From contig OZ242311.1 in the NCBI GenBank assembly GCA_965207885.1, positions 1,984,001 to 2,048,000 on the forward strand: DNA of 64,000 nt. Reading direction: 5' to 3'. Every line of letters starts with the position of its first letter. Position 1 is the first letter of the stretch. Below the pieces are notes generated by a model that made no database searches, had not been told where the DNA came from, and saw nothing but the letters and a program-made list of their open reading frames with translations. This stretch comes from Candidatus Latescibacterota bacterium. GTDB lineage: Bacteria > Latescibacterota > UBA2968. The translations under genes were made by a program, and so were the position numbers. This document shows, piece by piece, positions 27,808 through 48,232 of this stretch.

Positions 27808-27838
27808 AGCCGTCACATTGTGTGGCGGCTTTTTTATT
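27808..27838 (+). terminator. Intrinsic terminator
   Basis: aagccgtcaca-ttg-tgtggcggctt followed by ttttatt. Confidence 0.7.
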
Positions 27839-31345: not shown

Positions 31346-31480
31346 CTCCTTAAACAGAGTAGGGTATGGTTTGTTGGACCATTCTCGCTCTGTATGTTGC
31401 GGCAGAAGACCACAGGCTGACTACCAATCCGACAGGGACCTTCTGCCGTTTTCGCTGAGAAATATCACGGCTGATCCTTA
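31346..31480. repeat. Structured leader element copy A
   Basis: ctccttaaacagagtagggtatggtttgttggaccattctcgctctgtatgttgcggcagaagaccacaggctgactaccaatccgacagggaccttctgccgttttcgctgagaaatatcacggctga. Confidence 0.9.
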
Positions 31481-31548
31481 AAATATTTGAGACGATCTAC
31501 CAGGCGGGGCTTTGTTTGGCTGTGTGATTTGGGGGTATGCCATCGCGA

Positions 31549-33939
31549 TTAGTCGTCGTCGTCAATGATTACATTTACACCTACTACTACTGAGTCATAT
31601 CCACCCCCACTGGCCGTGTGCGTCAGCCGCACCCAGTAATCTATACTGTCATCGTCCTGGGCGGCTGTCATTGTCACCGTCTGCGCTGTGTTCCAGTTCT
31701 GATCAGTGAATGTGAGACTTGTGGGATCTGTCGATAGCTTGTCCGAATCAGAACTGCTAATTGTTACGGTGACATCTGCCGAAGGCTGGGTTTTTAAGGC
31801 CACTGTGTAGGTCGCGGTCAGCCCTTCTGTGACCGTGAACGCCGTCGGCGTCAGGACCAGATCTGCTGTGCTTGGAGTACCATCGGCAACCGTAGAATTG
31901 TTCGTGACGTCCTGGTAGGAAAAGAAGGCGAGCGCGTTGCCAACTGTATCGAGGAAGAATCCCGGCGCATTCTGGGCGAAGTGGTTGTTGTAATCTACTT
32001 TGACACTGTCTCCCCGGGTTATGGCGGTCGATAGGGTCAGTGTGATGTTGGATCCGATACTGGCATTACTGGGCTCTACCACCCTGTTATTCACTGTAAT
32101 CCCGGCGACTGCTTTGATGATCCGTCCCAGTTCTACGTTGAGGAATTCACTGAGCCAGGTTACCTGCGGCGACACGTCGATTTCCTCGCTGAAGGATATA
32201 GTGACTGTAAGTCCATCCGTAGATGTCTCAGATCCGGTATATATCGGACGAACACCGTCAACTTTGTGATCAGAATCAGGAGGAACAAATGCCTCACCAG
32301 ATCGATAGTCTATTCGATTGCCTACCAGGTCGTTGATTGTTCCTAGATCACTGGGTTGAACTCCAGGAATATCTACTGACAAAGCGGCGACGGGTAGTTG
32401 AATCCCGTCAGTTGAAAAATCACCTTCTTGAATTGTATATCTGAAAACTGCTTCTGTATCAGAAGACTCAACATAGCTTGCAAGTGCAGCAACTCGATCT
32501 CGCAACGCTAAGATGTACTCAGGAGAACCTGTAATGTCAACAGACTCACTAAATCTGATAGTAACTTCTACCGAGTCTCCGATAGCGTAGCCGTCCGTAT
32601 CAGGAGGAGTAGAAGTCAATTCAGCAGTTGCAACAAAAGGTCGAATGCCGTCAACTTTACGTGATGAATCAGTAGCTACTGCTGTATGAGTCAATTCAGC
32701 AGTATTTTCACTGCGATCCTGAATATACTCATTCTCGCCTACTGGCAAGGATAATGAGTTGGCAATGATAGAGATGCCTAAGCTATCACTAAGACCTTCT
32801 GATACTTGAAATGCGAATTCATGAGTGTTAGAGTAGTTGACTGAGAAACGATGATCAGCAGGTTGATACCTTGCCTCGACAGTATCAGCACCTACAACAA
32901 CAGATAACGTTGGTCCTCCACTGACTCCTACGACTTCGCTGAACTTAACTTTTGCGATGACAACGTCATCAATAGCGAAAGTAAAATCTGAACCTGCACT
33001 GGTAATAAATTCAACCGCAGTGATTGTTGGTGCAATATGATCAAGACGACCATCTACCTTGTGATCCGCCTGGGGCTCGAAACCGGCATAGATCCGATAG
33101 GCCGCTGTACTCGTTCCCACGGCAGTGACGGCAGTGTGATTGATAAAATTATGCCACGTACCGTTACTGTCCTGGTAGCCGCCGTCCATTTTTATGCCGT
33201 CGTCGTCGCGATCAGCCGATTGGACCTCATAGCCGAAGACCAGCTTGTTGGTGCCGGAGCCGCGGAGGTAACCGGCGGATTTCCAGTTGCTGCCGACCCA
33301 GAGGCCAAGTGCCGGATTGCCATCTACATCTACAGCTCTGCTGAAGGTGGCCTCGAACTCAATGGTCTCGCTTTCGCCATAGGTGTCTTCCCTGATAGGA
33401 GATGAGATTATCTCGATGTCCGTGATGTTCGGGTCATTGTCAATGATGGTGATCACGCACTTGTTGTCGCGGGTGGGATCGTCGAGATCAACCACGAGAT
33501 CGGTAGGTGTGAAGCGGGCAGTGAAGGTCTCGTTGCCTTCAATCAGAGTGTCTTCCCTGGTTGCGAAGGTGCGCTTAGCCCGGTTGGCGAGGTGCTCTTC
33601 GCGGGTGGACCATATCGACTCTGTGTTCTGATGCACGTAATCATCAGTACCAGCCGTTCCCGCATCGGTGTGCCAGTACGCAGCGAAGGGTAAGATGTGC
33701 TGGTGGTTGGTCACTCGAATCAGGAAGACATCTACTGAGTCGCCTTCCACGACTGTCGTATCCGGGCAGTCGAGGTAGAGTTTGGCCGTGTCAGCAGGAA
33801 CTTTGCTGAGAGAGAATGTGGGCAAGTCTTCCTGGGCAGCAGAAACTGCGGGCGGATCTTGAAGGCCGTTCAGTCCGATGAGGATGGTGATCGCAACGAT
33901 GCATGCCGACCACCCGAGTATGCCGGTTATCTTTTTCAA
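31549..33939 (-). CDS. Secreted acidic surface protein, paralog 1 (Calx-beta-like and repeated Ig-like domains)
   Basis: TTG start after AAGGAGG, signal peptide; EGNETFTARF..ITIIDND; repeated Y.IGD.V...FSE.V...G.P modules; FTDQNWNTAQTVT C-terminal domain. Confidence 0.75.
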   Translation of the reverse strand: MKKITGILGWSACIVAITILIGLNGLQDPPAVSAAQEDLPTFSLSKVPADTAKLYLDCPDTTVVEGDSVDVFLIRVTNHQHILPFAAYWHTDAGTAGTDDYVHQNTESIWSTREEHLANRAKRTFATREDTLIEGNETFTARFTPTDLVVDLDDPTRDNKCVITIIDNDPNITDIEIISSPIREDTYGESETIEFEATFSRAVDVDGNPALGLWVGSNWKSAGYLRGSGTNKLVFGYEVQSADRDDDGIKMDGGYQDSNGTWHNFINHTAVTAVGTSTAAYRIYAGFEPQADHKVDGRLDHIAPTITAVEFITSAGSDFTFAIDDVVIAKVKFSEVVGVSGGPTLSVVVGADTVEARYQPADHRFSVNYSNTHEFAFQVSEGLSDSLGISIIANSLSLPVGENEYIQDRSENTAELTHTAVATDSSRKVDGIRPFVATAELTSTPPDTDGYAIGDSVEVTIRFSESVDITGSPEYILALRDRVAALASYVESSDTEAVFRYTIQEGDFSTDGIQLPVAALSVDIPGVQPSDLGTINDLVGNRIDYRSGEAFVPPDSDHKVDGVRPIYTGSETSTDGLTVTISFSEEIDVSPQVTWLSEFLNVELGRIIKAVAGITVNNRVVEPSNASIGSNITLTLSTAITRGDSVKVDYNNHFAQNAPGFFLDTVGNALAFFSYQDVTNNSTVADGTPSTADLVLTPTAFTVTEGLTATYTVALKTQPSADVTVTISSSDSDKLSTDPTSLTFTDQNWNTAQTVTMTAAQDDDSIDYWVRLTHTASGGGYDSVVVGVNVIIDDDD

Positions 33940-33945
33940 GTCATT

Positions 33946-34078
33946 CCTCCTTAAAAAGAGTGGGTTATGGTTTGCTGGACCATTCACGCTGTGTATGTTG
34001 CGGCAGAGGGCCACTGGCTGACTACCAATCCGACAGGGCCTTCTGCCGTTTCCGCTGAGAAATATCACGGCTGATTCT
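33946..34078. repeat. Structured leader element copy B
   Basis: Near-identical to copies A and C; ends on the minus strand in the AAGGAGG RBS of paralog 1. Confidence 0.9.
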
Positions 34079-34148
34079 TAAAATATTTGAGACGACCTGC
34101 CAGGTGGGACTTTGTTTGGCTGTGTGATTTGGGGGTATGCCATCGCGA

Positions 34149-36470
34149 TTAGTCGTCGTCGTCAATGATTACATTTACACCTACTACTACCGAGTCATAT
34201 CCACCCCCACTGGCCGTGTGCGTCAGCCGCACCCAGTAATCTATACTGTCATCGTCCTGGGCGGCTGTCACTGTCACCGTCTGCGCTGTGTTCCAGTTCT
34301 GATTAGTGAATGTGAGACTTGTGGGATCTGTCGATAGCTTGTCCGAATCAGAACTGCTGATTGTTACGGTGACATCCGCCGAGGGCTGGGTTTTTAAGGC
34401 CACAGTGTAGGTCTCGGTCGCTCCTTCTGTAACCGTGAATCCCGTCGGTGTCAGTACCAGGTCTGCTGTGCTCGTTGTACCATCGGCAACCGTAGAATTG
34501 TTCGTGACGTCCTGATAGGAAAAAAGAGCGAGCGCGTTGCCAGCCGTATCGATGAAGAATCCCGGCGCACTCTGGGCGAAGTAATTGTTGTAATCTACTT
34601 TGACACTGTCTCCCTCGGTTATGGCGGTCGATAGGGTCAGTGTGATATCGGATCCGGAAATACTGGCATTACTGGGTTCTACCACCCTGTTATTTACTGT
34701 AATCCCGGCGACGGCTTTGATGATCCGTCCCAGTTCTACATTGAGGAATGTGCTGAGCCAGGTTACCTGCGACGGCACGGTGATGTCCTCGCTGAAGGTT
34801 ATGGTGACCGTCAGGCCATCCGTGGATGTTGCAGCACTGGAGAAGGTGGGATACACACCATCTACTTTGTGATCGGAATCGAAAGGCATAGCCCGGTGGA
34901 ACAGGTCAGCGGTATTTCCCACGGCGTCCTTTATGGTACCGCCGTTGAGAGTGAGTCCACGCATGGGGAAGCCGATGCCGCGGCTTGCAGAGTCGCTCTC
35001 CTCCACTGTGTAGATAAAGACTGCGCCATCTTCATTCGCGTTAACGTAGCTGGCCTGTTCCACCGCACTATCCTCGAAGGCCAGATCAATCTGCGGCGTG
35101 CCGGTAACGGTGATGTCTTCGCTGAATGTCACTGTCACTACGATGGTATCGCCGATGGCGTAGGTGGCATCATTTTTCGGAGTAGAGGTGAATTCTATGC
35201 TTGAGATGGTAGGAGACACACCATCTACCTTGTGTTCACTGTCAGAGGCCACGGCGTCGTGGGTCAGGTCAGCGTTGTTATCATATTGGTCCTTGATAGA
35301 ACCGCCATTGAGGGTGAGTTTGTTCGCACCGATGGAGATGCCGTTGCTGTCATTGTCACCCTCCACCACCTGGGTGAGGAAGCTCACCAAGAGGGAGTCA
35401 GTAGAGACGGCGGAGTAATCCGCCCTCCTTGACTTCGCACCGATGTCCAGAGACAATAGGGGGGTGCCAGTGATGATTACTCCTTTGCTGAATGTCACTT
35501 CCACGACGATAGAGTCGCCAATGCCGTAAGCACCGTCGTCTCCTGGATCAGAGGTGATATCAATTGATGATATGGTCGGGTCTATAGCCGCCGTGATTGA
35601 GCCATCTACCTTATGACCGGACTGGTTGCCGATGCCAGAATAGATCCGATAGGCCACTGTACTCGTTCCCACGGCAGTGACGGCAGTGTGATTGATAAAA
35701 TTATGCCACGTACCGTTACTGTCCTGGTAGCCGCCGTCCATTTTTATGCCGTCGTCGTCGCGATCAGCCGATTGGACCTCATAGCCGAAGACCAGCTTGT
35801 TGGTGCCGGAGCCGCGGAGGTAACCGGCGGATTTCCAGTTGCTGCCGACCCAGAGGCCAAGTGCCGGATTGCCATCTACATCTACAGCTCTGCTGAAGGT
35901 GGCCTCGAACTCAATGGTCTCGCTTTCGCCATAGGTGTCTTCCCTGATAGGAGATGAGATTATCTCGATGTCCGTGATGTTCGGGTCATTGTCAATGATG
36001 GTGATCACGCACTTGTTGTCGCGTTCCGGATTAGTCATATCTGTGACATTGCCAGTAGTTGTAAATCGTGCAGTAAAAGTCTCGTCGCCCTCGAGCAGGC
36101 TGTCTTGTCTAGTTCGAAAGGTGCGTTTTGCCCGCCCAGCTATGCGTTCAGCATCCGTACTCCAAATCGCACCTGTATTCTGATGAACGTAATCAGTAGA
36201 ATCAGCAGTTCCAGGATCAGTATGCCAAAACGCACCGAAATTTAAACCGTGATCATGATCGGTCACAAGAACGAGAAATACATCGACATTTTCTCCTTCA
36301 ACAACTGTCGTATCCGGGCAGTCGAGGTACCAACTTGCATTGTGAGTAGCGACCTTGCTAGCTTGTTGATCTTGAGCGAATATAGTAGACGGGTTTCGAA
36401 GATTGATAAAACCTGCTGCGAGTAGTACGATGATCGCAGACCATACTAGCCTGTCAAATTTCTTTCTCAA
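34149..36470 (-). CDS. Secreted acidic surface protein, paralog 2
   Basis: Same architecture as 31549-33939; TTG at 36470 after AAGGAGG; shares near-identical blocks with paralog 1. Confidence 0.75.
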   Translation of the reverse strand: MRKKFDRLVWSAIIVLLAAGFINLRNPSTIFAQDQQASKVATHNASWYLDCPDTTVVEGENVDVFLVLVTDHDHGLNFGAFWHTDPGTADSTDYVHQNTGAIWSTDAERIAGRAKRTFRTRQDSLLEGDETFTARFTTTGNVTDMTNPERDNKCVITIIDNDPNITDIEIISSPIREDTYGESETIEFEATFSRAVDVDGNPALGLWVGSNWKSAGYLRGSGTNKLVFGYEVQSADRDDDGIKMDGGYQDSNGTWHNFINHTAVTAVGTSTVAYRIYSGIGNQSGHKVDGSITAAIDPTISSIDITSDPGDDGAYGIGDSIVVEVTFSKGVIITGTPLLSLDIGAKSRRADYSAVSTDSLLVSFLTQVVEGDNDSNGISIGANKLTLNGGSIKDQYDNNADLTHDAVASDSEHKVDGVSPTISSIEFTSTPKNDATYAIGDTIVVTVTFSEDITVTGTPQIDLAFEDSAVEQASYVNANEDGAVFIYTVEESDSASRGIGFPMRGLTLNGGTIKDAVGNTADLFHRAMPFDSDHKVDGVYPTFSSAATSTDGLTVTITFSEDITVPSQVTWLSTFLNVELGRIIKAVAGITVNNRVVEPSNASISGSDITLTLSTAITEGDSVKVDYNNYFAQSAPGFFIDTAGNALALFSYQDVTNNSTVADGTTSTADLVLTPTGFTVTEGATETYTVALKTQPSADVTVTISSSDSDKLSTDPTSLTFTNQNWNTAQTVTVTAAQDDDSIDYWVRLTHTASGGGYDSVVVGVNVIIDDDD

Positions 36471-36584
36471 ACTATACCTCCTTAAACGTAGTAGGTTATG
36501 AAGGTCTTGTAGACAGGTGAGTACGGTAAGCATAACAACAAATGCTTACCATCCAAGTATGCCGATTGTCTTTTCCAAGTCATT

Positions 36585-36718
36585 CCTCCTTAAAAAGAGT
36601 GGGTTATGGTTTGCTGGACCATTCACGCTGTGTATGTTGCGGCAGAGGACCACAGGCTGACTACCAATCCGACTGGGACCTTCTGCTGTTTACGCTGAGA
36701 AATATCACGGCTGATTCT
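36585..36718. repeat. Structured leader element copy C
   Basis: Aligns with copy B over its full length. Confidence 0.9.
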
Positions 36719-36790
36719 CAGCGTAAATTAGCCTCAAAGCGGTTCAACTTTGGGTTACATATTCTCTTATTTGACAATATAATTTTAACT

Positions 36791-36808
36791 ATGCAAAATC
36801 TGTGCCAA
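36791..36808 (-). promoter_or_regulatory. Sigma54 -24/-12 promoter
   Basis: Minus strand TTGGCAC-AGATT-TTGCAT fits the consensus TGGCAC-N5-TTGC. Confidence 0.88.
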
Positions 36809-36819
36809 CGTGAATTTGT

Positions 36820-36955
36820 CACAAGATAATTTATCATAAAGCATTATTTATATTTAAGTAATTAAAAAAGAAATATAAAAATCAGTCTGGAATTTTATAT
36901 TCTCAATTACCATATATCGTGATATTTAGCCATATATGGTGATTGTCGATATTAA
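36820..36955. promoter_or_regulatory. AT-rich IHF-like tract plus putative upstream activator sequence
   Basis: ccatatatcgtgatatttagccatatatggtgattgtcgatattaa about 100-150 bp upstream of the -24 box; conserved at 44440-44576. Confidence 0.6.
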
Positions 36956-37015
36956 GAAAGCCCGTCTGGAGTTGCCCGCTTGAGTGGATAGTGTAGAAGG
37001 TTTCCCACCTTATCT

Positions 37016-40000
37016 TTACCAGCGCAGGGTGCCTCGTGCGAGCACCTCATGGTCTGCGCCGTTTAGCAACGGGCTTTCGCGGCGTTGCACATCAACGCCC
37101 AATTCGAAGTGGGGACGCTCCCGGTTCAAAAGCGCAAGGCCGTACCCTGCTCGGTAGTCCCGGCCATACTCAGAGGTCCCAAATCCGATTCTCGGTGTCC
37201 CAACGAAGCGTCTGCCCACAGGCAGACCGTAGCCTAAATCGGCTTTGAGGCGTCTTTCTGAAGTGTGTCTGTCGGAGACCCTGAACTGCTCCATCGTCTC
37301 TCTGCCCCACAGCATTTCGGCACCACTTACTGCCTGACCGCCCCACGATGGTGAAACCCGCGCTACAAATCCCAGAGGCGTTGACGGCCTCGGATTGTAA
37401 CTGAACGAGATCGCCACACCCTTATCCTGGAACCCTTTCGCCTGGTGTACCAGCAGTGTCCGCACCCGCACGTCGGCCGACAGCCCGGACAAGGGATTTA
37501 ATGCGATCAGGCTACCGGCGAGGTCCACGCCCGCACCCGTTTCGGCGTCGCCGCCGTCGTGCCGCAACCCAACCTCCAGGCGCGGCTGCAACGACATTCC
37601 ATCCCCCAACGCGTAGCTGCGCGAGGCTTCCAGACCCGCACGCAACCGCGTCACCAACGCCCGTGTCGCCGCCAGATTCCCCGCTGGACCAGCTATGTCT
37701 GCGTTCGCCATCGCCACCCCCAGCGCATCCGTCTTGAATGCCAGCCCAAAGCCGCCCACCGACGTAAACTCGCCCCGCAGCCCCGCCGCGGCCATCGCCA
37801 TCGACAGCCCCGTCTCCAGCACCGCACCTGCGCCCGGCGTCAAGCACAACCCACCCTTGCCGTATCCGGTCACACCCCAGAGTGTGATGCGGTCGGTCGC
37901 CCTGTAGCCCAGCCACGGGTAGAGTCCTGTCACCGACGAAGCCAACTGGCCGTTGTCGATGTCTGCATACCTGCCCTGGCCCCGGCTGTGCGCCAGTGTC
38001 AGGCCCGTCACCAGCGGCCCCTTCGCGTAGTCAAAGCCGAACAGCAGCGAGCGCACAGCCCCGTTCAGTGACAGCGTACCTTCACGCCCGCTGAAATCCG
38101 AATGGGAACCGTTGCTCCAAAATGACAGGACGCTCCCGCGACGCATCTCACGGTTAAGCGTGAACGCAGAGCCGGTCAGCACATCGCCTCTACCACCCAC
38201 GGATATCCGGAGAAGTTTAGCGATGTCTAGGTCGCCACCACTTGTCCGGTGTCCGCCTGCTGCCATGCCGCCCAATCGATTGAGGAAACCCTGCGCTATA
38301 TCGCGCTCCAGGCTCCGTCTCAGGTGCCATCCCGCGACCCGACCTTCAAAGCCAGGATCGCGTGGGGCGGCAATGCGTTTCTTCACTTGCTCGACCACAC
38401 GCACTGCCACTGTGCGCCCGAAACGCGCCATATAGGCTTGAGGCATGGGGTCGGAGTTGGCAATCGTACCCGTTGCCTCGGCGCGGGTGATGGTGAGTGT
38501 GCGCAGCGTGTTGCCATTGCCATCCATCAGCCGTGCGTTGCTGATCTTGACCTTCACTGTCTCGCCGTTGTCATTCACCGTGTCGTCAATGATCCGGACG
38601 AATGGTCTTTGATGCACCTCTCTCTTATCCATCCAGTCCGAATACTTGGGGCGAGCCAGATAGTCCGTCCCTTCGATGGCGGTCCCTCCCGAGATGGTCT
38701 CGAAGTCGTACACGATGTAGTAGCGCTGCGAAGGGCGCGAAGCGGTGACGGTGAACCGGAGCCACCCGTCATCCTCATTCGCGGTTGCATCCCTGATCGA
38801 TAGCGTCGGGTACGAAGCGTTGAGGGTGAGCGACGGGGCGTTCAAGAGTAGTCTGCCGTCCGGGTCGCACAGCGCGCCGTCCAGGTTGCAGGCCTGATTG
38901 GCAGTCATCGCGACGATGACCTCGCCGTCATCGGTTTCTGGACGCACCTCCATCCGCCAATGGTTGCTGAAGGTCGCGAACTTCGTGGTGCCGGGAAGAC
39001 GCCTGCGTTTCTTGTGGATGCGCTGTGCCTTAACGATTTCACCGTCCGTCACTGTGAAGACGTAGTCGCGCATGTCCTTGAAGCTCTTGGAGATGGCTGT
39101 CGAGAGCTTCAGGTCAAAGACGTAGTGAAGCCGCCCGCCCGATCCGTCCACCGGGTTCTTCTCCACGAGTCTCGCGGTAAGCCCGGTGCTCGGTGTGCCT
39201 TTGACAATATCCGAGGGGGTGCTATCGCCCGTGTCGTTCGTCGCGATGACGCGGACCATGTACTCCGGGCCGTTGGTCACACCCGTGATCGTGTAGCTCG
39301 TGTCCTCATCGTCCTCCAGGATCGCCTGGCGCCCGTCTGTCTCCGCATCGGCAAAGGTCTCGCCCCCCGACTTCCACTCGACCTTATATCCTCTGGCACC
39401 TATCGGTCTCTCCCAGGTGACCTCGAGTTGTCCGTGCTTCGGGATCACCTGCACGCCAGTTACCTGGTCTGGAGGATTCGTGAACAGCTTTATGAGCACC
39501 ACCTCTCCGAAAGTCCAGTCCAGGTCAAACTGGTCCGGAAGACTGTCTCGCCAGTCCTGGACCTGATCGCCGAAGTGCACGACCACACCCGATCCGGTAA
39601 GGGATAAAATGGCAGTCAGGGCGTTCCAAGGGGGATCGAACCCAAGTGGTAACGACTTATTGATAGGGTCGTACTCCAGCCGGTTCAGGGTGTACGTATT
39701 GCCGAGGATCTCAAACGACCGTGGCACCAGCGCGCCCGTCCCGTTCGTCTTGTTGTACCCCAGGAGGTTCCCGTTGAGGTCAACCGTCAGGTTCGCGGTG
39801 AACGCCGCCATAGGGTCCGCAGTCGGCGCGCCCGCCGCGCGCGCCACCTTGATCGTGTAGGTCGCCGTGGTGTTGTCCTCGGCCGTGACCGTGATCGTGA
39901 CCGTGTTGAGACCCTCGGACAGCGCCAGTGTGGCCGTGCCCGGCGTGGTCGTGTCCGTATCGCCCGCGATCGCCACCGTCGCGCCGTCGTCGTTCTTCGT

Positions 40001-40225: not shown

Positions 40226-40232
40226 AGTTGGT

Positions 40233-40398
40233 CTCCTTAAACAGAGTGGGTTATGGTTTGTTGGACCATTCTCGCTCTGTATGTTGCGGCAGAAGATCAC
40301 AGGCTGACTACCAATCCGACTGGGACCTTCCGCTGTTTCCGTAAATATCACGACTCATTCTCTGAGCCTCAAAACGATTCAAATTTCGGGTCACATAT
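40233..40398. repeat. Structured leader element copy D with extended upstream homology but no sigma54 box
   Basis: Aligns with A/C/E; homology stops at tcacatat, about 12 bp from the activator stop codon. Confidence 0.9.
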
Positions 40399-40410
40399 CC
40401 GATACACCAT

Positions 40411-43400
40411 TTAAGGACGTTTGATCCCCAGTTTTTTCATTTTGCCATACAGGGTAGAAGGCGGTAATCTTAGCAGTGCCGCTGCGCCCCTATTCCCGCT
40501 TATCTGATAGTTGGCGATTTTGAGCACTTCGAGAATATAGTGTCGCTCATATTCATCCAAAGGCACGACTTCGCGGTCCTGAGAAACTGTCACGGTGCGC
40601 CTTTTAGGATCAAGATCCGGACCTGTGATTCGGAAACCATACAGTCCTAGATCACCCACTTCGATTTGAGAACCGCGACACACGATGACGGCTCGCTGTA
40701 TCGTATGTTCCAGTTCCCGCACATTGCCAGGCCAATCGCAGGCTTGCAACACCTCGATAACCTCTGGCGTCAAAGGGGCTATTTGCTTGCCCAAATGTGT
40801 GGCCATGCGATTTTTGAAAAACTCAGCGAGGTGCGGGATATCCTCCTTGCGCTCGCGCAAGGGAGGGAGATAGATTGGAAAAACCTGGAAACGATAATAC
40901 AGATCCTCGCGGAATGCTCCTGAACTGACCAGTTCCTCAAGATTGCGATTCGTCGCTGCCACAATGCGCGCCTGCACCGACAGCGTCTCGCTACCTCCAA
41001 CGCGCTCAAATGTACCCTCTTCCAGTAATCGCAACATCCTGACCTGTGTTTGCGGAGCCATATCGCTGACCTCGTCCAAAAAGAGCGTACCGCCCTTAGC
41101 CAGTTCTACCTTGCCCAATCTGCGAGACACTGCACTGGTAAACGCTCCCTTTTCGTGACCAAAAAGCTCACTGTCGATCAGCGTTGCTGGCAATGCTCCG
41201 CAGTTGACCTGTATAAAAGGTCCATCGCTATTGGGACTCTGCGCGTGTAACACCCGCGCAGCCAATCCCTTGCCTACACCCGTCTCGCCTATAAACAGCA
41301 CGGACAGATCAGTGGGTACTACCTTTCTAAGTTGGAATTGAAACTGTTGCAAAACCTCGCTCTGACCGATAAACTCGTTACTCCCCTGGTTATTGAGTGT
41401 CGCAGTCAGGCCCTCAATACGCGGATCTGGCTCTACAGAGAGTTGAATTTGCGCGATCTCTGAGTAATTGAGGTCGCGATCTATCGCTCTGACCTGAAAC
41501 GTGTACTCGCCCGGTGGCAAGTTCTGATAATGTGCCCTCATTTCTCGGGTCGCAGGCTGCCAGTTGGGGTCGTATCCCTTCAGGCGATAGATATAGAGCA
41601 TGTCGCGGGGATGGGTAGAAAAACTCAGGCTCTTGTATTCAAAAATTACATCTTGATCCATCGTAGAGACGATGTCTTCCTTCGGGTTCTCATAGACCTG
41701 ACCAGCGACAACTTGAATCAGGCGAATCATGGGCGGCGTCTTTCGCAGGCGGTAGCGCACCAGCGTGTTTTGGGCTGTACCGAAATAGAAGGCGCCATCG
41801 CGGTCTTCGAGTATTTTAAGCACCGGTCCTATGTGCGGTGATTTGATGGTCTGGAAAAGCTGGCCATCGTAGTGAACTACGCCGCCGTCTGTGCCGAGCC
41901 AGAGGCGACCTTGAGAGTCCTCAAGCAAGCAATGGATGCGGTTGTTCGGCAAACCGTCTTCAGTCGTGAAGGTCTGGAAGGTGCTACCATTAAAACAGGC
42001 AAGACCGCCCTGGGTCGCCACCCACAGGTTGCCATGGCGGTCTAATAGCAGGTCACTGACCCTGTCATTGATCAGCCCGTCTTCAACCCCGTAAAATTTG
42101 AGGTCATCTTTGGGATGCCAGCGTGCGAAGCCCTTGTCGATGTCAGAGAAATGTTGATGAGCGAGATAAAAATAGACCTCGCCATTGCGCCCGGTAATCA
42201 CAGTACCGATGTAGCTGAAAGGATCCTTATTTTTATCTTTTACAATAATGGTTTGGAACTGCTCACCCCGCTGACAAGTGAGTCTCAAAGGACTGGCAAA
42301 AAGTGCTCTTTTTTCTTTGTCTTTTTTATTTTCCCAATGACCGAAAAGAAATTGCCCTTCCCGATCCTGGGCAATTGCACAAACACTGCTTGAACCTGCG
42401 GTTGTTTGCATTTTTTTTATCTTCTGCCCATCGTAGCGGAATAAGCCATTGATGCCGCCAAACCACAGATACCCGTCGTGGTCTTCGTAGATGGCAAAAC
42501 AGTTATTGATATCAAAATCATCCTCAGGGCCTATCAGGTCAATGGCCTCCCCATCAAAGCGAAAGACGCTATTGCTTTGATATGTAAAAACAGGAGACAC
42601 AGACCCCACCCATATATCACCGCGACTGTCTTGCACGATCTGCGAGACCTCACTCACGCTTTCAGAAGCCCTTGCACTGAAGTCGAAAACGCTGATACTA
42701 TGCGCATCGTAAAGACCGACACCACCCCACGTAGCAAACCAATACTGATGTTCGCGATCCTGGAACACGGCTTTGACTGCGGGATGGGGCAACCCATCGG
42801 GAGGCGTAAACTTGCTGAACCCATCACCGTCCTGATAGAGCACGCCTTCTGAGGTGCAAAACCACATCCGACCTTCTCGATCGCATTGAATTTTGCGCAG
42901 TGGACTACCCAAATCTACCTGAACAGGCTGGAAATTGCCATCGGCATAGCACCAGAGTTCGTTCTGATGTCCACGTTGACCAAACCACACCTTACCGGTA
43001 TCGTCCTGCCCCACCGCATAGCTTATATCGACTGTGGGAACCCCCTCTTTCTCTTCATAGCGATGGAAGGAAGTGCCATCAAAGCGAATGAGGTGGTTAA
43101 AGCCAAACCACAGGTGGCCTTTCGGGTCCTGGGCAATGCCCCGACACTGTTTACGACGAAGTAGCGGCTCGTAGTGCTTAAGATAGAGCGGCATCAGGTC
43201 GTGGAACACAGTCCCGTCGTAATATCCCAGGGTCCTGTGACCGCCACACCATATACGCCCCTCACGATCTTCGTAGATGAACTGCACAGCGCGGCCTGCG
43301 ATCCCCTCATCTTCCAAATGATGGAAATTTGTCCCATCGTACCAGCAGACCCCATTTCGTGTACCAAACCACAACCGATCACGTCTGTCCTTTTGAACAA

Positions 43401-43605
43401 AATAAATACTATCATTAATAAGACCGTCCTGTTGCGTAAAATTTCGAAACTCGTCTCCATCAAAGCGACTAACGCCGTTATCACAGGTGGCGAACCAGAG
43501 ATAGCCCGCGCTGTCTTCGGCAATGTGTTCAATGCGCATCCCGGCCAGACCATCGGCTATAGAATAAGTCCGCCAGGTGCCTTTGCGGTTAAGTGATTGG
43601 ATCAT
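40411..43605 (-). CDS. Sigma54-dependent activator 1: Reg_prop beta-propellers + Y_Y_Y + AAA+ + Fis-type HTH
   Basis: Repeated DGL..V..I.ED..G.LWF; [24 protein letters not shown]; [37 protein letters not shown]; [10 protein letters not shown]. Confidence 0.92.
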
Positions 43606-43839
43606 AAAAATCCCCATGATACAGGTAAAAATTTAGTTCATAGTGGGGCTCCTTTCTAACTACTGAGAAGGTAACCGCCAAAACGATGCTGTTGCCGAAT
43701 TAGTCAAGAGGGAGTCTGCGGTTGGAAAAATGGCTATTTGTGGCCTGAATGCAGGCTCTGTAAGCCCTATGTTTAGTTGTATTGAGATAGAATTCGGAAT
43801 TCGGCAACAGCATCCAAAACGGGTCAAGTCCACTAACAC

Positions 43840-44163
43840 TTACAAGTCCTCGACTCTTTCGTACTCATTACGGGCACGACGTAATAATCCCGTCTTCTTA
43901 GTATCAACGACAGGACGAGTTTCCACATTATTCGTAACGGACATTGCCAAAGCCACAACCCATCCAATAAACGTCCATCCAAGAAATAAATTGATTACCA
44001 GGATGGAGGCTCGGTTTCTATGGTATCGAAAAAACGCAGTAATTGCCGGAGCGAAGTAAAGTGCCAGTAAGAGCACCAAAATAAACTGACCCATCCCGGT
44101 ATTTAACAAAGTGTCCCTGAGATCTGACAAGGCTAAATACAACATTAATAAGTCATAATACAT
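43840..44163 (-). CDS. Superinfection immunity protein (T4 Imm-like)
   Basis: LYFAPAI.AFFR.HRNRASILVINLFLGWTFIGWVVAL signature. Confidence 0.8.
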   Translation of the reverse strand: MYYDLLMLYLALSDLRDTLLNTGMGQFILVLLLALYFAPAITAFFRYHRNRASILVINLFLGWTFIGWVVALAMSVTNNVETRPVVDTKKTGLLRRARNEYERVEDL

Positions 44164-44220
44164 ATCTAATTTCTCATCGTGTAGTTTGATAAGAAATAAA
44201 CCGACAAGCCTTTAACATCA

Positions 44221-44383
44221 AAAAGAGTGGGTTATGGTTTGCTGGACCATTCCTGCTCTATATGTTGCGGCAGAAGGCCACAGGCTGACTACCAATCCGA
44301 CTGGGACCTTTTGACGTTTTTGCTGAGAAATATCACGGCTGATTCTCTGAGCATCAAAACAGTTCAAATTTTGGGTCACATAT
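44221..44383. repeat. Structured leader element copy E (no adjacent AAGGAGG)
   Basis: aaaagagtgggttatggtttgctggaccattcctgctctatatgttgcggcagaaggccacaggctgactaccaatccgactgggacc. Confidence 0.9.
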
Positions 44384-44409
44384 TCTTCTTTGCGAAATAA
44401 CTCTAAACT

Positions 44410-44427
44410 ATGCAATATCCGTGCCAA
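44410..44427 (-). promoter_or_regulatory. Sigma54 -24/-12 promoter
   Basis: Minus strand TTGGCAC-GGATA-TTGCAT. Confidence 0.88.
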
Positions 44428-44439
44428 AGTGATTTTTCA

Positions 44440-44576
44440 CAAGATAATTTTAATCATAACGTGTTATTTATGTTGAATTAATTAAAAGAGGAGATATATA
44501 AATCAGTCTGAAATTTTATATTCTCAATCACCATATATCGCGATATTTAACCATATATGATGATTGCCGATATTAA
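44440..44576. promoter_or_regulatory. IHF-like tract plus putative UAS directly after the activator 2 stop codon
   Basis: Palindrome atatcgcgatat and two ccatatat repeats; homologous to 36820-36955. Confidence 0.6.
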
Positions 44577-44582
44577 CAGAAC

Positions 44583-47500
44583 TTAAGAGAATTTGATTCC
44601 CAGTTTTCTCATTTTGCCATACAGGGTAGAAGGCGGTAGTCCCAGCAGTACCGCTGCTCCCCTATCCCCACTTATCTGATAGTTGGTGATTTTGAGTACT
44701 TCGAGAATATAGTGTCGCTCATATTCGTCCAAAGGCACGACTTCGCGGTCTTGAGAAACTGTCACGGTGCTCCTCTTAAGATCAGGAGTCGGGCCTTCGA
44801 TTCGCAAACCATGCAGTCCGAGATCCCGCACTTCGATTTGCGAACCGTGACACACGATTACGGCTCGCTGTATCGTATGCTCCAGTTCACGCACATTGCC
44901 AGGCCAATCGTAACTTTGCAATACCTTTATAACTTCTGGCTCGAGGGGAGCTATTTGTTTACCCAGGTGTGTAGCCATGCGATGCTTGAAAAACTCAGAT
45001 AGGTCCGGTATATCTTCCTTGCGCTCGCGCAGTGGAGGTAGAAGAATTGGAAAAACCTGGAAACGATAATACAGATCCTCGCGGAAAATACCTGTGCTAA
45101 CCATATCCTCCAAATTGCGATTCGTCGCAGCCACAATGCGCGCCTGTATCGATAGTGTCTCGCTACCTCCAACGCGCTCATAAGTGCCCTCTTCCAGCAA
45201 GCGCAACATCCTGGCCTGTGTTCCCACAGCCATATCGCTGACCTCGTCTAAAAAGAGCGTGCCGCCCTTAGCCAGTTCTACTTTGCCCAGCCTGAGAGAC
45301 TCTGCGCCGGTAAACGCTCCTCGTTCGTGACCAAACAGTTCACTATCGATCAGCGTTTCAGACAGTGCACCGCAGTTGACCTGTATAAAAGGTCCATTAC
45401 AATAGTGACTCTGTGCGTGTAACACCCGCGCAGCCAATCCCTTGCCTACACCCGTCTCGCCTATAATTAGCACCGTTATATCAGTGGGTGCTACCTTTCT
45501 GAGCCGGATCTGAAATTGTTGCAAAACCTCGCTCTGACCGATAAACTCGTTATCCCCCTGATTATTGAGTGTCGCAGTCAGGCCCTCAATACGCGGATCT
45601 GGCTCTACCGAGAGTTGAATCTGCGCCATCTCTGAGTAATTGAGATCACGGTCTATCGCTCTGACCTGAAAGGTGTAGTCTCCCGGTGGCAAGTTCCGGT
45701 AGTAGGCCCGCGTCTTTCGTGTCGCAGGCTGCCAGTCGGGGTCGTATCCTTCAAGACGATAGACATAGAGCATGTCGCTGGGATGGGTGGAAAAACTCAT
45801 CCCCTTATACTCAAAAGTCACCTGTTGGTCTGTCGTAGAGCCGATGCCTTCTTTCGGGTTCTCATAGACCTGATCGGCGACAACTTGAAGCAGACGCACC
45901 CTGGGCGAGGTCTGTCGCAGGCGATAGCGCACCACCGTGTTTTGTGCTGTGCCAAACCAGAAAGATCCATAGCGATCTTCGAGTATTTTGAGCACCGGTC
46001 CTATGTGCGATGACTTGATGGTCTGGAAAAGCTGGCCATCGTAGTGAACCACGCCGCCGTCTGTGCCAAGCCAAAGGTGGCCTTGCGAATCTTCGAACAA
46101 ACAACGGATGGCATTGCTCGGCAGACCATCTTTAGTCGTAAAGTTGTGGAAGGTACTGCCATCAAAGCAACTGAGACCTCTTTGAGTAGCGACCCACAGG
46201 GTGCCATTGCGGTCTTCTATAAGATCGGTGACTCTGTCATCTATCAGTCCGTCTTCAACCTCGTAAAATTTGAGGCCATCTTCGGGATGCCAGCGTGCGA
46301 AGCCCTTGTTCGTGTCGGAGAAATTTTGGTGGATGAGATGAAAATAAACCTCGCCATTGCGCCCGGTAATCACAGTGCCAATGCGGCTGTAAGGATCTTT
46401 ATCTTTTTCCTCTGAAAAAATGGTTTGGAACTGCTCACCTTGCTGACAAATGAGTCTCAATGGGTGGACAAAAAGGTATCTTCTTCTCTTTTTATTTTCG
46501 TTTTCCCAATGACCAAAAAGGAATCTCCCTTGCGAATCCTGATCAATTGCACAAATACTGCCTGAACCTGCGGGTGTTTGCATTTTTTCGAGCTTCTGCC
46601 CTTCGTAGCGAAACAAGCCATTGACGCCGCCAAACCACAGGCATCCATCACGGTCCTCGTAGATGGCAAAACAGTTGTCTATATCGCCATCTTCAGTGCC
46701 TACAAAGTCAAAGTGTTCGCCATCAAAGCGAAAAACGCTTTTCTCCAGACGGTTGAGAAAAGGAGCGGCATATCCGATCCATATATCTCCTCGCCGATCT
46801 TGTACGAGTTGTGAGATTTCACTTACTTCTCTGGATAATTTCGCACTGAGGTCGAAAACGCTGATACTCTGTGCATCGTAGAGCCCAATACCTCCCCAGG
46901 TGGCAAACCAATACTGATATTCGCGATCATGGAATACAGCTTTGACCGCGGGATGGGGCAGGCCATTGTCAGAGGTAAACCTGTTGAACCCATCACCATC
47001 CTGAAAGAACACGCCTTGTGACGTGGAAAACCACATTCGACCTTCACTATCACACTGAATTTTGCGCAGTGTGCCCTCCAAATCTACCTGAACAGACTGA
47101 AAGGAGCCATCTGCATAGCACCAGAGTTTATTTTCGTATTCGCGATAGCCGATCCACACCTTACCGGTATGGTCCTGCCCCACAGCATAGCTCGTCAGAA
47201 TGCGTGGCGGAAACCCCTCTTCCTCTTCATAGCGATGGAAGGATTGACCGTCAAAGCGGATGAGGTAGTTAAAACCAAACCACAGGTGGCCTTTCGGATC
47301 CTGGGCAATTCCCCGGCACTGGTTGGACCACTGTGGTGAAGGAGGTTTCTCGTAGTGCTGAAGATAGAGTGGGATCAGGTCGTGAAACACAGTGCCGTCG
47401 TAATATCCCAGAGTGCGATGACCACCACACCATATACGCCCCTCACGGTCTTCGTAGATGGACTGCACGGCACGGCCTGCAATCCCGTCATCCTCCAGAT

Positions 47501-47786
47501 AGTGGAAATCTGCTCCGTCATACCAGCAGACCCCATTTAGTGTACCAAACCACAACCGATCACGATTGTCCTGTAAAACAAAATGAACGCAGTCATCCAC
47601 AAGACCATCCTGTCGCGTAAAATTCTGAAACTCATCTCCGTCGAAGCGACTGACGCCGTTGTCCCAGGTAGCGAACCAGAGATAGCCTTCGCTATCCTCG
47701 GCGATGTGTTCAATGCGCATCCCGGCCAGGCCATCGGCTATAGAATAAGTCCGCCAGGTGCCCGTGCGATCAAGTGATTTGAGCAT
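44583..47786 (-). CDS. Sigma54-dependent activator 2: Reg_prop propellers + Y_Y_Y + AAA+ + HTH
   Basis: Paralog of 40411-43605 with canonical GAFTGA. Confidence 0.92.
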   Translation of the reverse strand: MLKSLDRTGTWRTYSIADGLAGMRIEHIAEDSEGYLWFATWDNGVSRFDGDEFQNFTRQDGLVDDCVHFVLQDNRDRLWFGTLNGVCWYDGADFHYLEDDGIAGRAVQSIYEDREGRIWCGGHRTLGYYDGTVFHDLIPLYLQHYEKPPSPQWSNQCRGIAQDPKGHLWFGFNYLIRFDGQSFHRYEEEEGFPPRILTSYAVGQDHTGKVWIGYREYENKLWCYADGSFQSVQVDLEGTLRKIQCDSEGRMWFSTSQGVFFQDGDGFNRFTSDNGLPHPAVKAVFHDREYQYWFATWGGIGLYDAQSISVFDLSAKLSREVSEISQLVQDRRGDIWIGYAAPFLNRLEKSVFRFDGEHFDFVGTEDGDIDNCFAIYEDRDGCLWFGGVNGLFRYEGQKLEKMQTPAGSGSICAIDQDSQGRFLFGHWENENKKRRRYLFVHPLRLICQQGEQFQTIFSEEKDKDPYSRIGTVITGRNGEVYFHLIHQNFSDTNKGFARWHPEDGLKFYEVEDGLIDDRVTDLIEDRNGTLWVATQRGLSCFDGSTFHNFTTKDGLPSNAIRCLFEDSQGHLWLGTDGGVVHYDGQLFQTIKSSHIGPVLKILEDRYGSFWFGTAQNTVVRYRLRQTSPRVRLLQVVADQVYENPKEGIGSTTDQQVTFEYKGMSFSTHPSDMLYVYRLEGYDPDWQPATRKTRAYYRNLPPGDYTFQVRAIDRDLNYSEMAQIQLSVEPDPRIEGLTATLNNQGDNEFIGQSEVLQQFQIRLRKVAPTDITVLIIGETGVGKGLAARVLHAQSHYCNGPFIQVNCGALSETLIDSELFGHERGAFTGAESLRLGKVELAKGGTLFLDEVSDMAVGTQARMLRLLEEGTYERVGGSETLSIQARIVAATNRNLEDMVSTGIFREDLYYRFQVFPILLPPLRERKEDIPDLSEFFKHRMATHLGKQIAPLEPEVIKVLQSYDWPGNVRELEHTIQRAVIVCHGSQIEVRDLGLHGLRIEGPTPDLKRSTVTVSQDREVVPLDEYERHYILEVLKITNYQISGDRGAAVLLGLPPSTLYGKMRKLGIKFS

Positions 47787-48002
47787 AATAAAACCTTATG
47801 ATACAGGTGAAAATTTTAGTTCACATCGGATAACACATCACGACTATAAACCCTTCTTAATCTATGTATTTTCATAACCAAATTTTAAGGAAAATGTTGC
47901 GATTTACGAATCTCTTTCCCTGAAGAGTTGAACTGAAACAATCTGGTTTTTCATCATATTATTACCTCTTGATTTTTGAATTTTAAAACTATACATTTAA
48001 AA

Positions 48003-48101
48003 ATAGAGTGGGTTATGGTTTGTTGGACCATTCCTGCTCTGTATGTTGCGGCAGGGGGCCACAGGCTGACTACCAATCCGACATGGCCTTCTGCCGTTTT
48101 T
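48003..48101 (+). ncRNA. Element copy F: candidate ~100-nt two-hairpin sRNA with its own promoter and U-tract
   Basis: TTGATT-N17-TACATT at 47969-47997 just before stem 1; cggcagggggcca/tggccttctgccg pairs fully with G-U, followed by ttttt; homology with the other copies ends right after. Confidence 0.5.
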
Positions 48102-48199
48102 GCTGCAATGAAAAAATAAAATAAATTTGTGTTTTTTTAATCTGATACTAAATAAAGTAAAAGTCAAGATTTTCTATATTGTTACCCGTTTTTTATGAG

Positions 48200-48232
48200 A
48201 AAAGGGCGCGTTCAAAACGCGCCCTTATTTTT
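48200..48232. terminator. Intrinsic terminator downstream of the PIG-L gene
   Basis: aagggcgcg-ttcaaaa-cgcgccctt flanked by A and T runs. Confidence 0.65.

Follow-up and report, generated by a model that had tools for sequence, protein, structure and literature searches.

The repeated structured element in a 64,000-nt stretch of DNA (hereafter the window) from a sponge-associated Latescibacterota bacterium is best explained as a genus-specific small RNA (sRNA) module. In the reading we favour, which we put at a probability of roughly 0.5, the element represents an antisense sRNA together with duplicated copies of its target in mRNA leaders, the two partners pairing by loop-loop kissing. The six copies in the window, A to F, are apparently not equivalent, F resembling a complete sRNA gene and A-E promoter-less derivatives of one. 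In silico, we observed a family with a covarying structure, strand asymmetry, promoter and terminator motifs, a characteristic orientation to the adjacent gene, complementarity between copies, and a fixed loop alongside drifting stems. If this reading is true, one sRNA could pair with the messages of surface-protein and polysaccharide-lyase genes.

A repeat search of the window yielded a single family of six copies of 133 nt, 68-100% identical to the reference copy and starting on the + strand at 31346, 33947, 36586, 40233, 44214 and 47995; the element itself is ~97-133 nt long across the six. The 19-mer GGCTGACTACCAATCCGAC occurs six times in the window, on the + strand only and with 0 mismatches, against a chance expectation of 0 (no match in 100 shuffles of the window), and each of the six copies is 5' of a minus-strand ORF. 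The original prediction of six copies in one orientation, 5' of minus-strand genes and with an invariant core, is borne out by these results. A seventh copy (L001) lies elsewhere in the same genome, at G000:C1:1257358. The window copies, with bit scores from R1, a covariance model of the element family, are:

31355..31451, + strand: copy A, class II, 104.7 bits
33956..34051, + strand: copy B, class II, intercistronic, 105.7 bits
36595..36691, + strand: copy C, class II, in a 5' UTR behind a sigma54 promoter, 95.4 bits
40242..40338, + strand: copy D, class II, intercistronic, 105.1 bits
44223..44319, + strand: copy E, class II, in a 5' UTR behind a sigma54 promoter, 101.9 bits
48004..48105, + strand: copy F, class I, predicted intact sRNA gene (R1, fold, and promoter and terminator motifs)

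With 114.9 bits (48004-48099), copy F scores highest with R1 among the window copies; it contains, in order, a 5' hairpin A, a linker, a hairpin B whose apical loop measures 24 nt, and a T-run as terminator. Its + strand folds at -45.0 kcal/mol (z -4.37; 0 of 200 shuffles equal), compared with -33.4 kcal/mol (z -2.68) for the minus strand, and a terminator scan placed a terminator-like site with the tail TTTTGCTGCA at 48083-48097 on the + strand. The following features surround it:

47969..47997, + strand: predicted F promoter, TTGATT-17 nt-TACATT, hexamers at the family-wide position
47904..47957, - strand: conserved 17-codon uORF between copy F and bEBP2, also present at F-type loci of five further genomes
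44583..47786, - strand: activator gene bEBP2, with Reg_prop repeats, Y_Y_Y, a sigma54 AAA+ domain and HTH_8
48139..48167, - strand: candidate mRNA promoter (TTGACT...), a weak motif match

The predicted F promoter ends 6 nt upstream of the element and is absent from a generic promoter scan because only 8 of 12 consensus positions match. Its -35 box is overlapped by the SD of the uORF (AAGAGG). The same scan did not list the candidate promoter at 48139-48167; other genomes conserve its TTGACT box downstream of their F-type copies. An mRNA starting at this promoter would cross F in the antisense direction and then run through the uORF and bEBP2. The two predicted promoters converge on F from ~170 nt apart, and since they face each other, both transcriptional interference and antisense pairing could occur.

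Searching with R1, we found 60 copies in 16 of the 21 genomes of one Latescibacterota genus, at 1-8 copies per genome, and 0 copies in 131 genomes from 45 other genera of the phylum. The pattern TTGnnn-N16/17-TAnnnT, ending 5-6 nt before the element, is present in 38 of 59 copies, F included. Among these promoter-bearing copies, 30 have TTGATT, 31 have TACATT, and 35 of 38 keep the 17-nt spacing. The hexamers carry 1.77 and 1.80 bits of information versus 1.14 for the spacer, the hexamer values being partly forced by the search pattern. A hairpin with a T-run was detected in at least 27 of the 38. Additionally, of 53 scorable copies, 50 have their promoter-side gene on the opposite strand; terminator-side genes occur on either strand. 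We read the promoter-bearing copies as stand-alone sRNA genes of ~100-135 nt. The family is mostly made up of such genes, located beside eukaryotic-like and surface-protein genes, and is not specific to the sigma54 island. Homology between genomes ends at the element boundary, with the same leader joined to unrelated cargo, as expected from the earlier description of a module common to non-homologous cargo.

The two stems and the T-run proposed for the + strand are real. Both sides have changed in 18 of 26 base pairs, values that 0 of 500 shuffles reach, and 91.1% of cells are paired versus 36-60% with the partners slid, although cell counts overstate independent events since the copies are related by descent, and the alignment (A3) was fitted to the model. 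RNAalifold gave -17.6 on the + strand versus -8.4 on the mRNA strand. Promoter-bearing (class I) copies have 92 G-U cells on the + strand versus 42 A-C cells, the latter being would-be G-U pairs on the mRNA strand; promoter-less copies have 33 versus 24. Together with the fold of F, these data support the proposal that the + strand, which is antisense to the genes, folds better. The bias of stem changes toward the + strand, predicted to have some exceptions, is indeed uneven: in A-E, hairpin A favours the + strand and two hairpin-B pairs favour the mRNA strand, and the folds are moderate, their z-scores without consistent strand preference. This mixed preference fits decay as well as function. 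Across a set of 20 long-loop copies (7 genomes), 31 of 52 stem columns are variable, against just 7 of 31 in the loop and linker, and the 19-mer is unchanged in 19 of the 20. An Rfam search matched the element to no family, riboswitch and leader families included, in agreement with its original description as belonging to no recognised family.

Copies A-E have no sRNA promoter and are located in predicted mRNA leaders, C and E after perfect sigma54 promoters, and A, B and D between cistrons. A-E and L001 match F in 84-88 of 96-97 nt and share uninterrupted identical runs of 20-29 nt with it (87/97 nt and a longest run of 25 nt for A, 88/96 nt for B, a 29-nt run for D). As A-E are read antisense within mRNAs, each of those mRNAs would carry ~96 nt with 87-92% complementarity to the predicted F RNA, ending ~5 nt from the SD. 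This complementarity and the fixed loop are among the findings in favour of the earlier idea of an antisense RNA and its target, our favoured reading. Elsewhere in the genome, 13-mer matches to F numbered 16 versus 10-27 in shuffles, showing no excess. The array around these copies includes:

27837..31127, - strand: PL8 polysaccharide lyase gene, final cargo in the array
37016-40225, - strand: cadherin-like/fn3/Calx-beta gene (Pfam), ATG at 40225
40411-43617: bEBP1, a paralogue of bEBP2 (repeats D4-D6 and D11)
31346-51, 33947-52, 36586-91 and 40233-38, - strand: AAGGAG abutting A, B, C and D, respectively
36792..36807, - strand: sigma54-type promoter TGGCACAGATTTTGCA upstream of copy C, 0 mismatches
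44411..44426, - strand: sigma54-type promoter TGGCACGGATATTGCA upstream of copy E, 0 mismatches
36864..36955, - strand: upstream region present twice, with half sites of the CCATATATGG type (direct repeat D12)
44485..44576, - strand: second copy of this putative activator-site region, also with half sites (D12)
36696..36759, + strand: IS3-type scar between the sigma54 promoter and copy C, identified by homology with an intact element's end
31456-31480, 34056-34080, 40343-40395 and 44324-44380: shorter IS3-type scars, by the same homology

Mismatches of the sigma54 promoters were counted against the general sigma54 consensus pattern. In other genomes five class II copies have the same promoter upstream as copy E, and so does L001. 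No perfect sigma54 promoter precedes any other copy in the window, a point that the original description of a sigma54 array lacks. The two D12 regions are 89% identical and likely represent an activator-binding site. The scar at copy C consists of the final transposase codons and a terminal repeat. Intact IS elements matching the scars are present at L021, L035 and L036, with ORF domains HTH_21, rve and rve_3, and the hairpin module has no homology to them beyond the 25-70 nt scar. The element of ~135 bp originally described is a real repeat, part of which is an IS3-type insertion scar.

On the mRNA strand, copy A follows the stop of gene 31549-33939 and precedes the leader of the PL8 lyase, and copy B stops 5 nt short of AAGGAGG and the TTG (33939) that opens gene 31549-33939. 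Copy D lies between bEBP1 and the cadherin-like/fn3/Calx-beta gene, and copy E upstream of an Imm_superinfect gene and bEBP1. Motif location confirmed that A-D run into AAGGAG(G) and that E and F lack it. In A-D, this SD, on the opposite strand, occupies the former position of the -10 box.

On the favoured reading, the sigma70-type promoter at 47969-47997 would start an F RNA of ~100 nt at ~48004, predicted to fold into two hairpins, A and B, joined by a conserved single-stranded linker; hairpin B together with a U-tract would end the transcript. Transcription of F would run against the leader of bEBP2, the sigma54 activator gene, and its 17-codon uORF. Like the seventh copy, A-E would be duplicates of the sRNA gene minus its promoter, read in the opposite sense inside mRNAs. 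The hairpin-B loop of the sRNA could then kiss its exact complement, the loop of the mirror hairpin in the mRNA, and the duplex would spread from the kissing loops toward the SD, blocking translation and/or making RNase III sites at which the polycistronic mRNA would be cut between genes. We infer the transcription of F, its pairing with the leaders and the sign of regulation. Pairing of F RNA with the array leaders would allow one sRNA to set a threshold for the entire activator-controlled array, comprising the lyase, the adhesin-like genes and the activators.

Alternatively, and with a chance that we consider modest, only F and its class I relatives function, A-E being inert relics of the sRNA gene carried along by block duplication and recombination, and similar through recent origin and gene conversion instead of selection. 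A, B and C lie in a tandem block with periods of 2601 and 2639 nt, and D and E each follow paralogous activator genes, so segmental duplication could by itself explain the copy number. The structure of C has decayed (z -0.47 on the + strand and -0.42 on the minus strand), hairpin B contains tandem mismatches, and the IS-scarred copies all plainly derive from one ancestor. The SD also serves a long ORF at normal spacing only at B and D; at C it precedes a 10-codon remnant ORF, and at A an ATG directly abuts it. Promoter-less copies are restricted to the long-loop lineage, and an F-type gene is present in 6 of the 7 genomes with that lineage, both of which speak for the antisense reading; the exception, G014 (a genome in 50 contigs, 98% complete), keeps a long-loop copy lacking the promoter and has no F-type gene, which relics would explain. 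In G003, the F-type copy has one loop change without a counterpart in its leader copy. Against inert relics stand the fixed loop and linker among drifting stems, the persistence of copies at orthologous sites in several species with different cargo, and an SD junction that is retained whether or not a copy carries the IS scar.

It is rather doubtful that A-E act in cis as an mRNA-strand leader element independent of F RNA, whether by binding a protein through a hairpin, by stabilising the processed 5' end, or by attenuation (hairpin A with U5 just before the SD). Such a role would account for the distance from element to AAGGAG, fixed at 5 nt in A-D and in copies of other genomes, for the occurrence of the element after promoters and between cistrons alike, and for the hairpins that most copies are predicted to form on the mRNA strand, where two hairpin-B pairs are G-U or U-G on that strand only in 7-8 of 14 class II copies. 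However, hairpin A on the mRNA strand has A-C where the + strand has G-U (11/14 and 5/14 at two pairs), the U-run after hairpin A is absent from the short-loop lineage, and no riboswitch or leader family matches. Moreover, an independent function would not require a loop kept exactly complementary to the F-type loop.

A DNA-level site, be it an attC-type ssDNA recombination site as once suggested, a mobile repeat of the MITE/REP type or an invertible cassette with a promoter that shuffles cargo, is very improbable: same-orientation repeats between unrelated genes, the stop of inter-genome homology at the element edge, the IS scar on many copies, the strong class I promoter directed away from the adjacent gene and a CRISPR spacer matching the element in a relative would suit it, but a range of ~280 kb contains no tyrosine recombinase (the nearest is ~284 kb from the window), the element forms two independent hairpins instead of one from its ends, the four loci examined have no conserved flanking inverted repeats, the hairpin module is unrelated to the intact IS outside the scar, copy number is low, and the conserved promoter and terminator would be left unexplained.

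The element resembles integron attC sites and the Vibrio VCR in being a ~100-130-nt structured repeat, in one orientation among unrelated genes, with one strand folding better. Unlike them, it has no integrase nearby, two hairpins in place of one end-to-end hairpin, and promoter and terminator motifs of its own, and it is dispersed over the genome. The apparent facing promoters at F, ~170 nt apart, recall prgQ/prgX of pCF10, a convergent-promoter sense/antisense switch, although the candidate mRNA-side promoter at F is a weak motif match. Related antisense RNAs that are repeated and overlap the 5' region of an opposite-strand gene are also found in Sib/Ibs and SymR/SymE, where every copy comes with an sRNA and a small toxin gene of its own. 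In contrast, most window copies have no sRNA promoter, and large, unrelated genes (for a lyase, adhesin-like proteins and activators) form the cargo, with no toxin. CopA/CopT, the antisense control of repA in plasmid R1, likewise features an antisense RNA of ~90-100 nt with two stem-loops directed against an mRNA leader, a loop exactly complementary to that of the target's mirror hairpin, and a target upstream of a short leader ORF, which here would be the 17-codon uORF before bEBP2. It differs in that our element is chromosomal, with the target module copied in trans before at least six other genes, and resides in an uncultured Latescibacterota host, for which kissing, RNase III cleavage and translational coupling are predictions. 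Finally, as in the GcvB sponge, an mRNA-derived sponge of an sRNA (PMC4474525), complementary sequence borne on mRNAs could titrate the sRNA and create cross-talk within the regulon; by contrast, complementarity here is near full-length and would arise from the duplication of the sRNA gene itself.

A repeat search of the window recovered one family of six 133-nt copies (A to F, at 31346, 33947, 36586, 40233, 44214 and 47995) with 68-100% identity to the reference copy, so the six-copy repeat of the original prediction is real; the same 6.2-Mb genome holds a seventh copy, at C1:1257358. The 19-mer at the core of the loop, which had been described as invariant, occurs six times, always on the + strand and with 0 mismatches, compared with 0 occurrences in 100 shuffles. 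The genes flanking the six copies all lie on the minus strand:

27837-31127, minus strand: PL8 polysaccharide lyase gene (domain annotation)
31549-33939 and 34149-36533, minus strand: two paralogous genes without Pfam domains
37016-40225, minus strand: gene for a cadherin-like/fn3/Calx-beta protein (Pfam)
40411-43617 and 44583-47786, minus strand: bEBP1 and bEBP2, a pair of sigma54 activator paralogues whose sensor parts are Reg_prop and Y_Y_Y
minus strand: gene for a small Imm_superinfect protein

An AAGGAG Shine-Dalgarno (SD) motif abuts copies A-D and is absent from E and F, just as first noted. Copies A, B and D directly follow the stop codon of the upstream gene and are thus intercistronic. 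The N-terminal Reg_prop and Y_Y_Y sensor of the two activators is of the type familiar from Bacteroides hybrid two-component systems, and activators of this kind are much expanded in relatives (36 loci, L038-L070, several per genome). The sequencing runs that contain this stretch are DNA, mostly labelled as sponge metagenome, with no RNA run on record among the 23 listed.

We built a covariance model, R1, from 27 copies gathered in relatives. With R1 we found 60 copies, distributed over 16 of the 21 genus genomes at 1-8 per genome; 131 genomes from 45 other genera of the phylum yielded no match. For the 59 copies re-found in fetched loci, on which the statistics rest, both partners have changed at 18 of 26 pairs, and 91.1% of cells pair compared with 36-60% when the partners are slid, values equalled by 0 of 500 shuffles; because the fitting of this alignment to the model favours the structure, and the copies are kin, these numbers indicate a conserved fold and are not a tally of independent events. 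The covariation called for by the original prediction is present, and its failure to recognise a family agrees with Rfam 15, which gave no match at or above the gathering score anywhere in the window and none in six promoter-bearing loci of relatives. With E values up to 10, copy A drew just SNORD65 (E 5.5) and DUF805b (E 8.4), neither of them anywhere near the gathering score. A scan of metagenome contigs with an 18-mer returned 23 loci, none of which fits R1, and we dismissed these as chance hits that do not widen the distribution. Exact scans of viral contigs found neither the 18-mer core nor a CRISPR protospacer-like 29-mer, and carriage of the element by phage or plasmid was set aside. 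Taken together, the copies form a genuine structured RNA family that is specific to the genus and not filed in Rfam.

The family divides into copies with their own predicted + strand sRNA promoter (class I) and copies without one (class II). The motif TTGnnn-N16/17-TAnnnT ends 5-6 nt before the element on the + strand in 38 of the 59 copies, F included; TTGATT is found in 30 of these, TACATT in 31 and a 17-nt spacing in 35. Three positions of each hexamer are forced by the search pattern, and the free positions are more conserved than the spacer. A GC-rich hairpin followed by a T-run is present on the + strand of at least 27 of the 38, a lower bound set by a crude detector. RNAalifold yielded -17.6 on the + strand versus -8.4 on the mRNA strand, and the promoter-bearing copies hold 92 cells with G-U pairs on the + strand versus 42 of G-U type on the mRNA strand, consistent with the proposal that the antisense (+) strand is the folded one. 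In A-E the G-U/A-C pattern is mixed (33 versus 24), and two hairpin-B pairs favour the mRNA strand. Given the promoter and terminator motifs, the fold and the G-U bias of the + strand, we read class I copies as putative stand-alone sRNA genes of ~100-135 nt. The features around copy F are as follows:

47904-47957, minus strand: 17-codon upstream ORF (uORF) between F and bEBP2, with a strong SD overlapping the -35 box of the predicted F promoter
47969-47997, plus strand: predicted promoter of F, a motif conserved across copies
48083-48097, plus strand: terminator-like site of F, hairpin B then TTTTT (generic scan)
48139-48167, minus strand: candidate mRNA-side promoter facing F (motif match only)

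The + strand of F folds at -45.0 kcal/mol with a z-score of -4.37 and 0 of 200 shuffles as good; the opposite strand gives a z-score of -2.68. A generic promoter scan did not list the F promoter, which agrees with the consensus at 8 of 12 positions; support for it comes from conservation across the family copies. The uORF recurs, with its nucleotide sequence conserved, at the F-type loci of five other genomes.

Two further structures are found around class I copies. An 11-bp GC-rich hairpin (48202-48226) with T-runs on each strand separates the PIG-L/MFS operon from the F locus and is likely a bidirectional terminator insulating the latter. In most class I copies of the short-loop lineage of the element, a palindrome GTTGCAT-N15-ATGCAAC sits just upstream of the -35 box (L085:~2430-2470, L082:~8110-8150) and is followed by GAGAAAGGAGG on the other strand; it is absent from the window and may serve either as an operator through which a regulator acts on the sRNA promoter or as a leader hairpin of the neighbouring gene.

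In 50 of 53 scorable copies the promoter-side gene is encoded on the opposite strand, while the terminator-side gene takes either strand, so the sRNA gene points away from an opposite-strand gene and is located just upstream of it. No conserved mRNA-strand promoter upstream of class I copies was found by eye. We scanned 20 neighbouring proteins for domains; encoded immediately downstream on the mRNA strand are, among others, WD40/CARDB, ankyrin, Calx-beta, LapA-like and LDL-receptor-B/DUF5050 proteins, a P450-GPP34 fusion and several domain-less proteins. These neighbours are the eukaryotic-like proteins that one report describes, along with CRISPR, in sponge Latescibacterota (PMC12993501). 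In one relative (G010, L079:2663-4627, + strand), a class II leader copy and a sigma54 promoter precede a gene fusing GPP34 (Golgi phosphoprotein 3) to cytochrome P450; GPP34 is reported to be linked to sponge symbiosis (PMC11706023).

A second structured RNA, which we call RNA X, has a ~135-nt core closed by a long helix and occurs upstream of numerous class I copies, on the mRNA strand (for example L083:3666-3894, minus strand; 15 distinct copies in loci L074-L113). It has a TTGCAA-N17-TAYTRT-like promoter of its own as well as two terminators of the hairpin/T-run type, folds at -39.4 versus -21.5 for the reverse strand by RNAalifold, has no match in Rfam, and is represented in the window's own genome by a partial hit alone (C1:354716-354780). 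RNA X could be a riboswitch-like leader of eukaryotic-like protein genes.

The array had also been described as sigma54-controlled. Using the consensus with GG and GC elements at fixed spacing (TGGCAC-N5-TTGCW), we found perfect sites upstream of C (36792-36807) and E (44411-44426), ~105-115 nt away, and at no other copy in the window; a repeated region with CCATATATGG half sites lies ~100 nt upstream of each. Sites with up to two mismatches number 22 in the window, fewer than the 36.6 expected by chance. The element itself contains no such site and is thus not a sigma54-dependent promoter. Upstream of class I copies there are just two strict sites, both from a single genome, and a recurrent loose match there turned out to be a piece of another structured RNA.

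Of the 135-bp element first delineated, the hairpin module stands, and the promoter-proximal part is an insertion-sequence scar:

31456-31480: IS3-type scar
34056-34080: IS3-type scar
36696-36759: IS3-type scar
40343-40395: IS3-type scar
44324-44380: IS3-type scar
L021:~1460-2810: intact IS3-type element in a relative

In three relatives, the 25-70 nt of the scar belong to an intact element of ~1.35 kb, as the last codons of its transposase gene plus its terminal repeat; the ORF of this intact element has HTH_21, rve and rve_3 domains, and no counterpart of the hairpin module is present in it. The element as a whole is therefore not a MITE of this IS3-type element, the shared part being the terminal 25-70 nt alone. 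Exact 25-nt scar matches occur in many genomes of the genus solely because those genomes carry the intact element. The scar, comprising the last 8 transposase codons and the terminal repeat, has a fixed place, with the sigma54 promoter on one side and the hairpins on the other, and has been duplicated together with the leader.

Class II comprises A-E, the seventh copy and eight copies from six other genomes, and is confined to the long-loop lineage, the one holding the 19-mer. In A-D, the opposite-strand AAGGAG occupies the exact place of the -10 box of F. An F-type gene is present once in each of six of the seven long-loop-lineage genomes; G014 has none. F shares 84-88 of 96-97 positions with A-E and the seventh copy, including exact runs of 20-29 nt, which makes the leader mRNAs 87-92% complementary to F RNA up to ~5 nt from the SD. 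Elsewhere in the genome, F has 16 exact 13-mer matches, within the 10-27 seen in shuffles, and we discarded further trans targets. Variation across 20 long-loop copies touches 31 of 52 columns in the stems and 7 of 31 in the loop and linker. The 19-mer is identical in F and A-E while the stems vary, and the mRNA strand of the copies is predicted to form a mirror hairpin B; the earlier idea of an antisense RNA/target pair is kept as our reading. Between genomes, homology ends at the element edge, one leader being joined to differing cargo and one cargo to differing upstream DNA, in line with the claim of non-homologous cargo.

From these data, the window is best described as one intact predicted sRNA gene and five putative sense-embedded antisense copies in a sigma54-controlled array, an unusual arrangement. 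F RNA would meet the leaders through exactly complementary apical loops, those of hairpin B and its mirror image; loop contact would then zip into a long duplex beside the SD, which would prevent translation or open the RNA to double-strand cleavage between cistrons. In addition, F would act in cis on the uORF-bEBP2 leader of its own locus, possibly with interference between the facing promoters. Everything beyond sequence complementarity and loop conservation we infer, and our confidence that F controls the leader copies is moderate, as judged from sequence. More broadly, we tentatively propose, with a probability of roughly 0.3, a regulon built by copying the regulator. One trans antisense sRNA would govern host-interaction genes (a glycosaminoglycan-type lyase, cadherin/fn3/Calx and other eukaryotic-like surface proteins, and their sigma54 activators) through portable ~100-nt 'anti-sRNA' leader cassettes derived from the sRNA gene and placed before or between unrelated genes. 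New cargo would join the regulon by recombining behind the cassette, and sister sRNA subfamilies with different loops would form separate, non-cross-talking symbiosis regulons throughout the genus.

That A-E are instead inert relics is doubtful, with several observations in its favour: A-E fold less well than F and have no consistent strand preference by z-score, their G-U/A-C pattern is the mixed one, A, B and C lie inside a tandem duplication and D and E after paralogous activator genes, and the SD at A and C does not serve a long ORF. Behind C (36535-36594, minus strand), an SD leads into a 10-codon N-terminus remnant of the paralogous gene (compare copy B), followed by a hairpin and a second SD, a visible trace of tandem duplication of an element-plus-gene unit. 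It is unlikely that A-E act alone, on the mRNA strand. With regard to a riboswitch or transcription attenuator on that strand, hairpin A followed by U5 before the SD is found in the long-loop lineage and not in short-loop copies, and the folds are weak (z -0.4 to -2.7).

A DNA-level recombination or mobile site, including the ssDNA recombination site once suggested, is very improbable, there being two hairpins, no flanking inverted repeats and no recombinase within ~284 kb. An attC site is a single imperfect hairpin formed from both site ends, with R''/L''-L'/R' boxes. A genome-wide search for tyrosine recombinases of the integron integrase type (PF00589) gave four matches, the nearest at 1700380-1700895, ~284 kb from the window, and the element has two separate hairpins and repeat ends that are not mutually inverted, so we rejected an attC identity. 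At the four loci examined, the flanks have no conserved inverted repeats, which also led us to reject an invertible promoter and, given the 1-8 copies per genome and a one-sided IS3-type scar only, a MITE/REP-type mobile repeat.

A CRISPR array of a relative in the genus (L020, G017:C1:3447159-3450187) has a spacer, number 22, that matches element hairpin A at 28 of 29 positions, the first 5 spacer nt being unmatched; the other 23 spacers do not match the window's genome. The G017 genome is 98% complete and has 0 R1 matches, that is, no element copy, which suggests that a variant of the element may travel on DNA foreign to this strain.

To our knowledge, Latescibacterota has no cultured member. 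Our literature search found no paper on a small RNA of the phylum, and the terms 'small RNA' and 'sigma' occur 0 times in the passages of PMC12993501 covered here. The present family is a structured, covarying RNA tied by position and orientation to putative sponge-life genes (ankyrin, WD40, cadherin/fn3/Calx-beta, GPP34-type and PL8 lyase). Should the antisense reading be true, it would provide a concrete, testable layer of post-transcriptional control over symbiosis factors and an unusual regulon wiring, in which target sites arise by sRNA gene duplication. R1 is ready to annotate these genomes and to mine sponge metatranscriptomes. Antisense sRNA control is itself of a known kind; what is unusual here is the arrangement of one predicted sRNA gene plus derived leader copies. 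In the proposed mechanism, antisense and target would pair much as in the CopA/CopT system of plasmid R1, with the target module here copied in trans.
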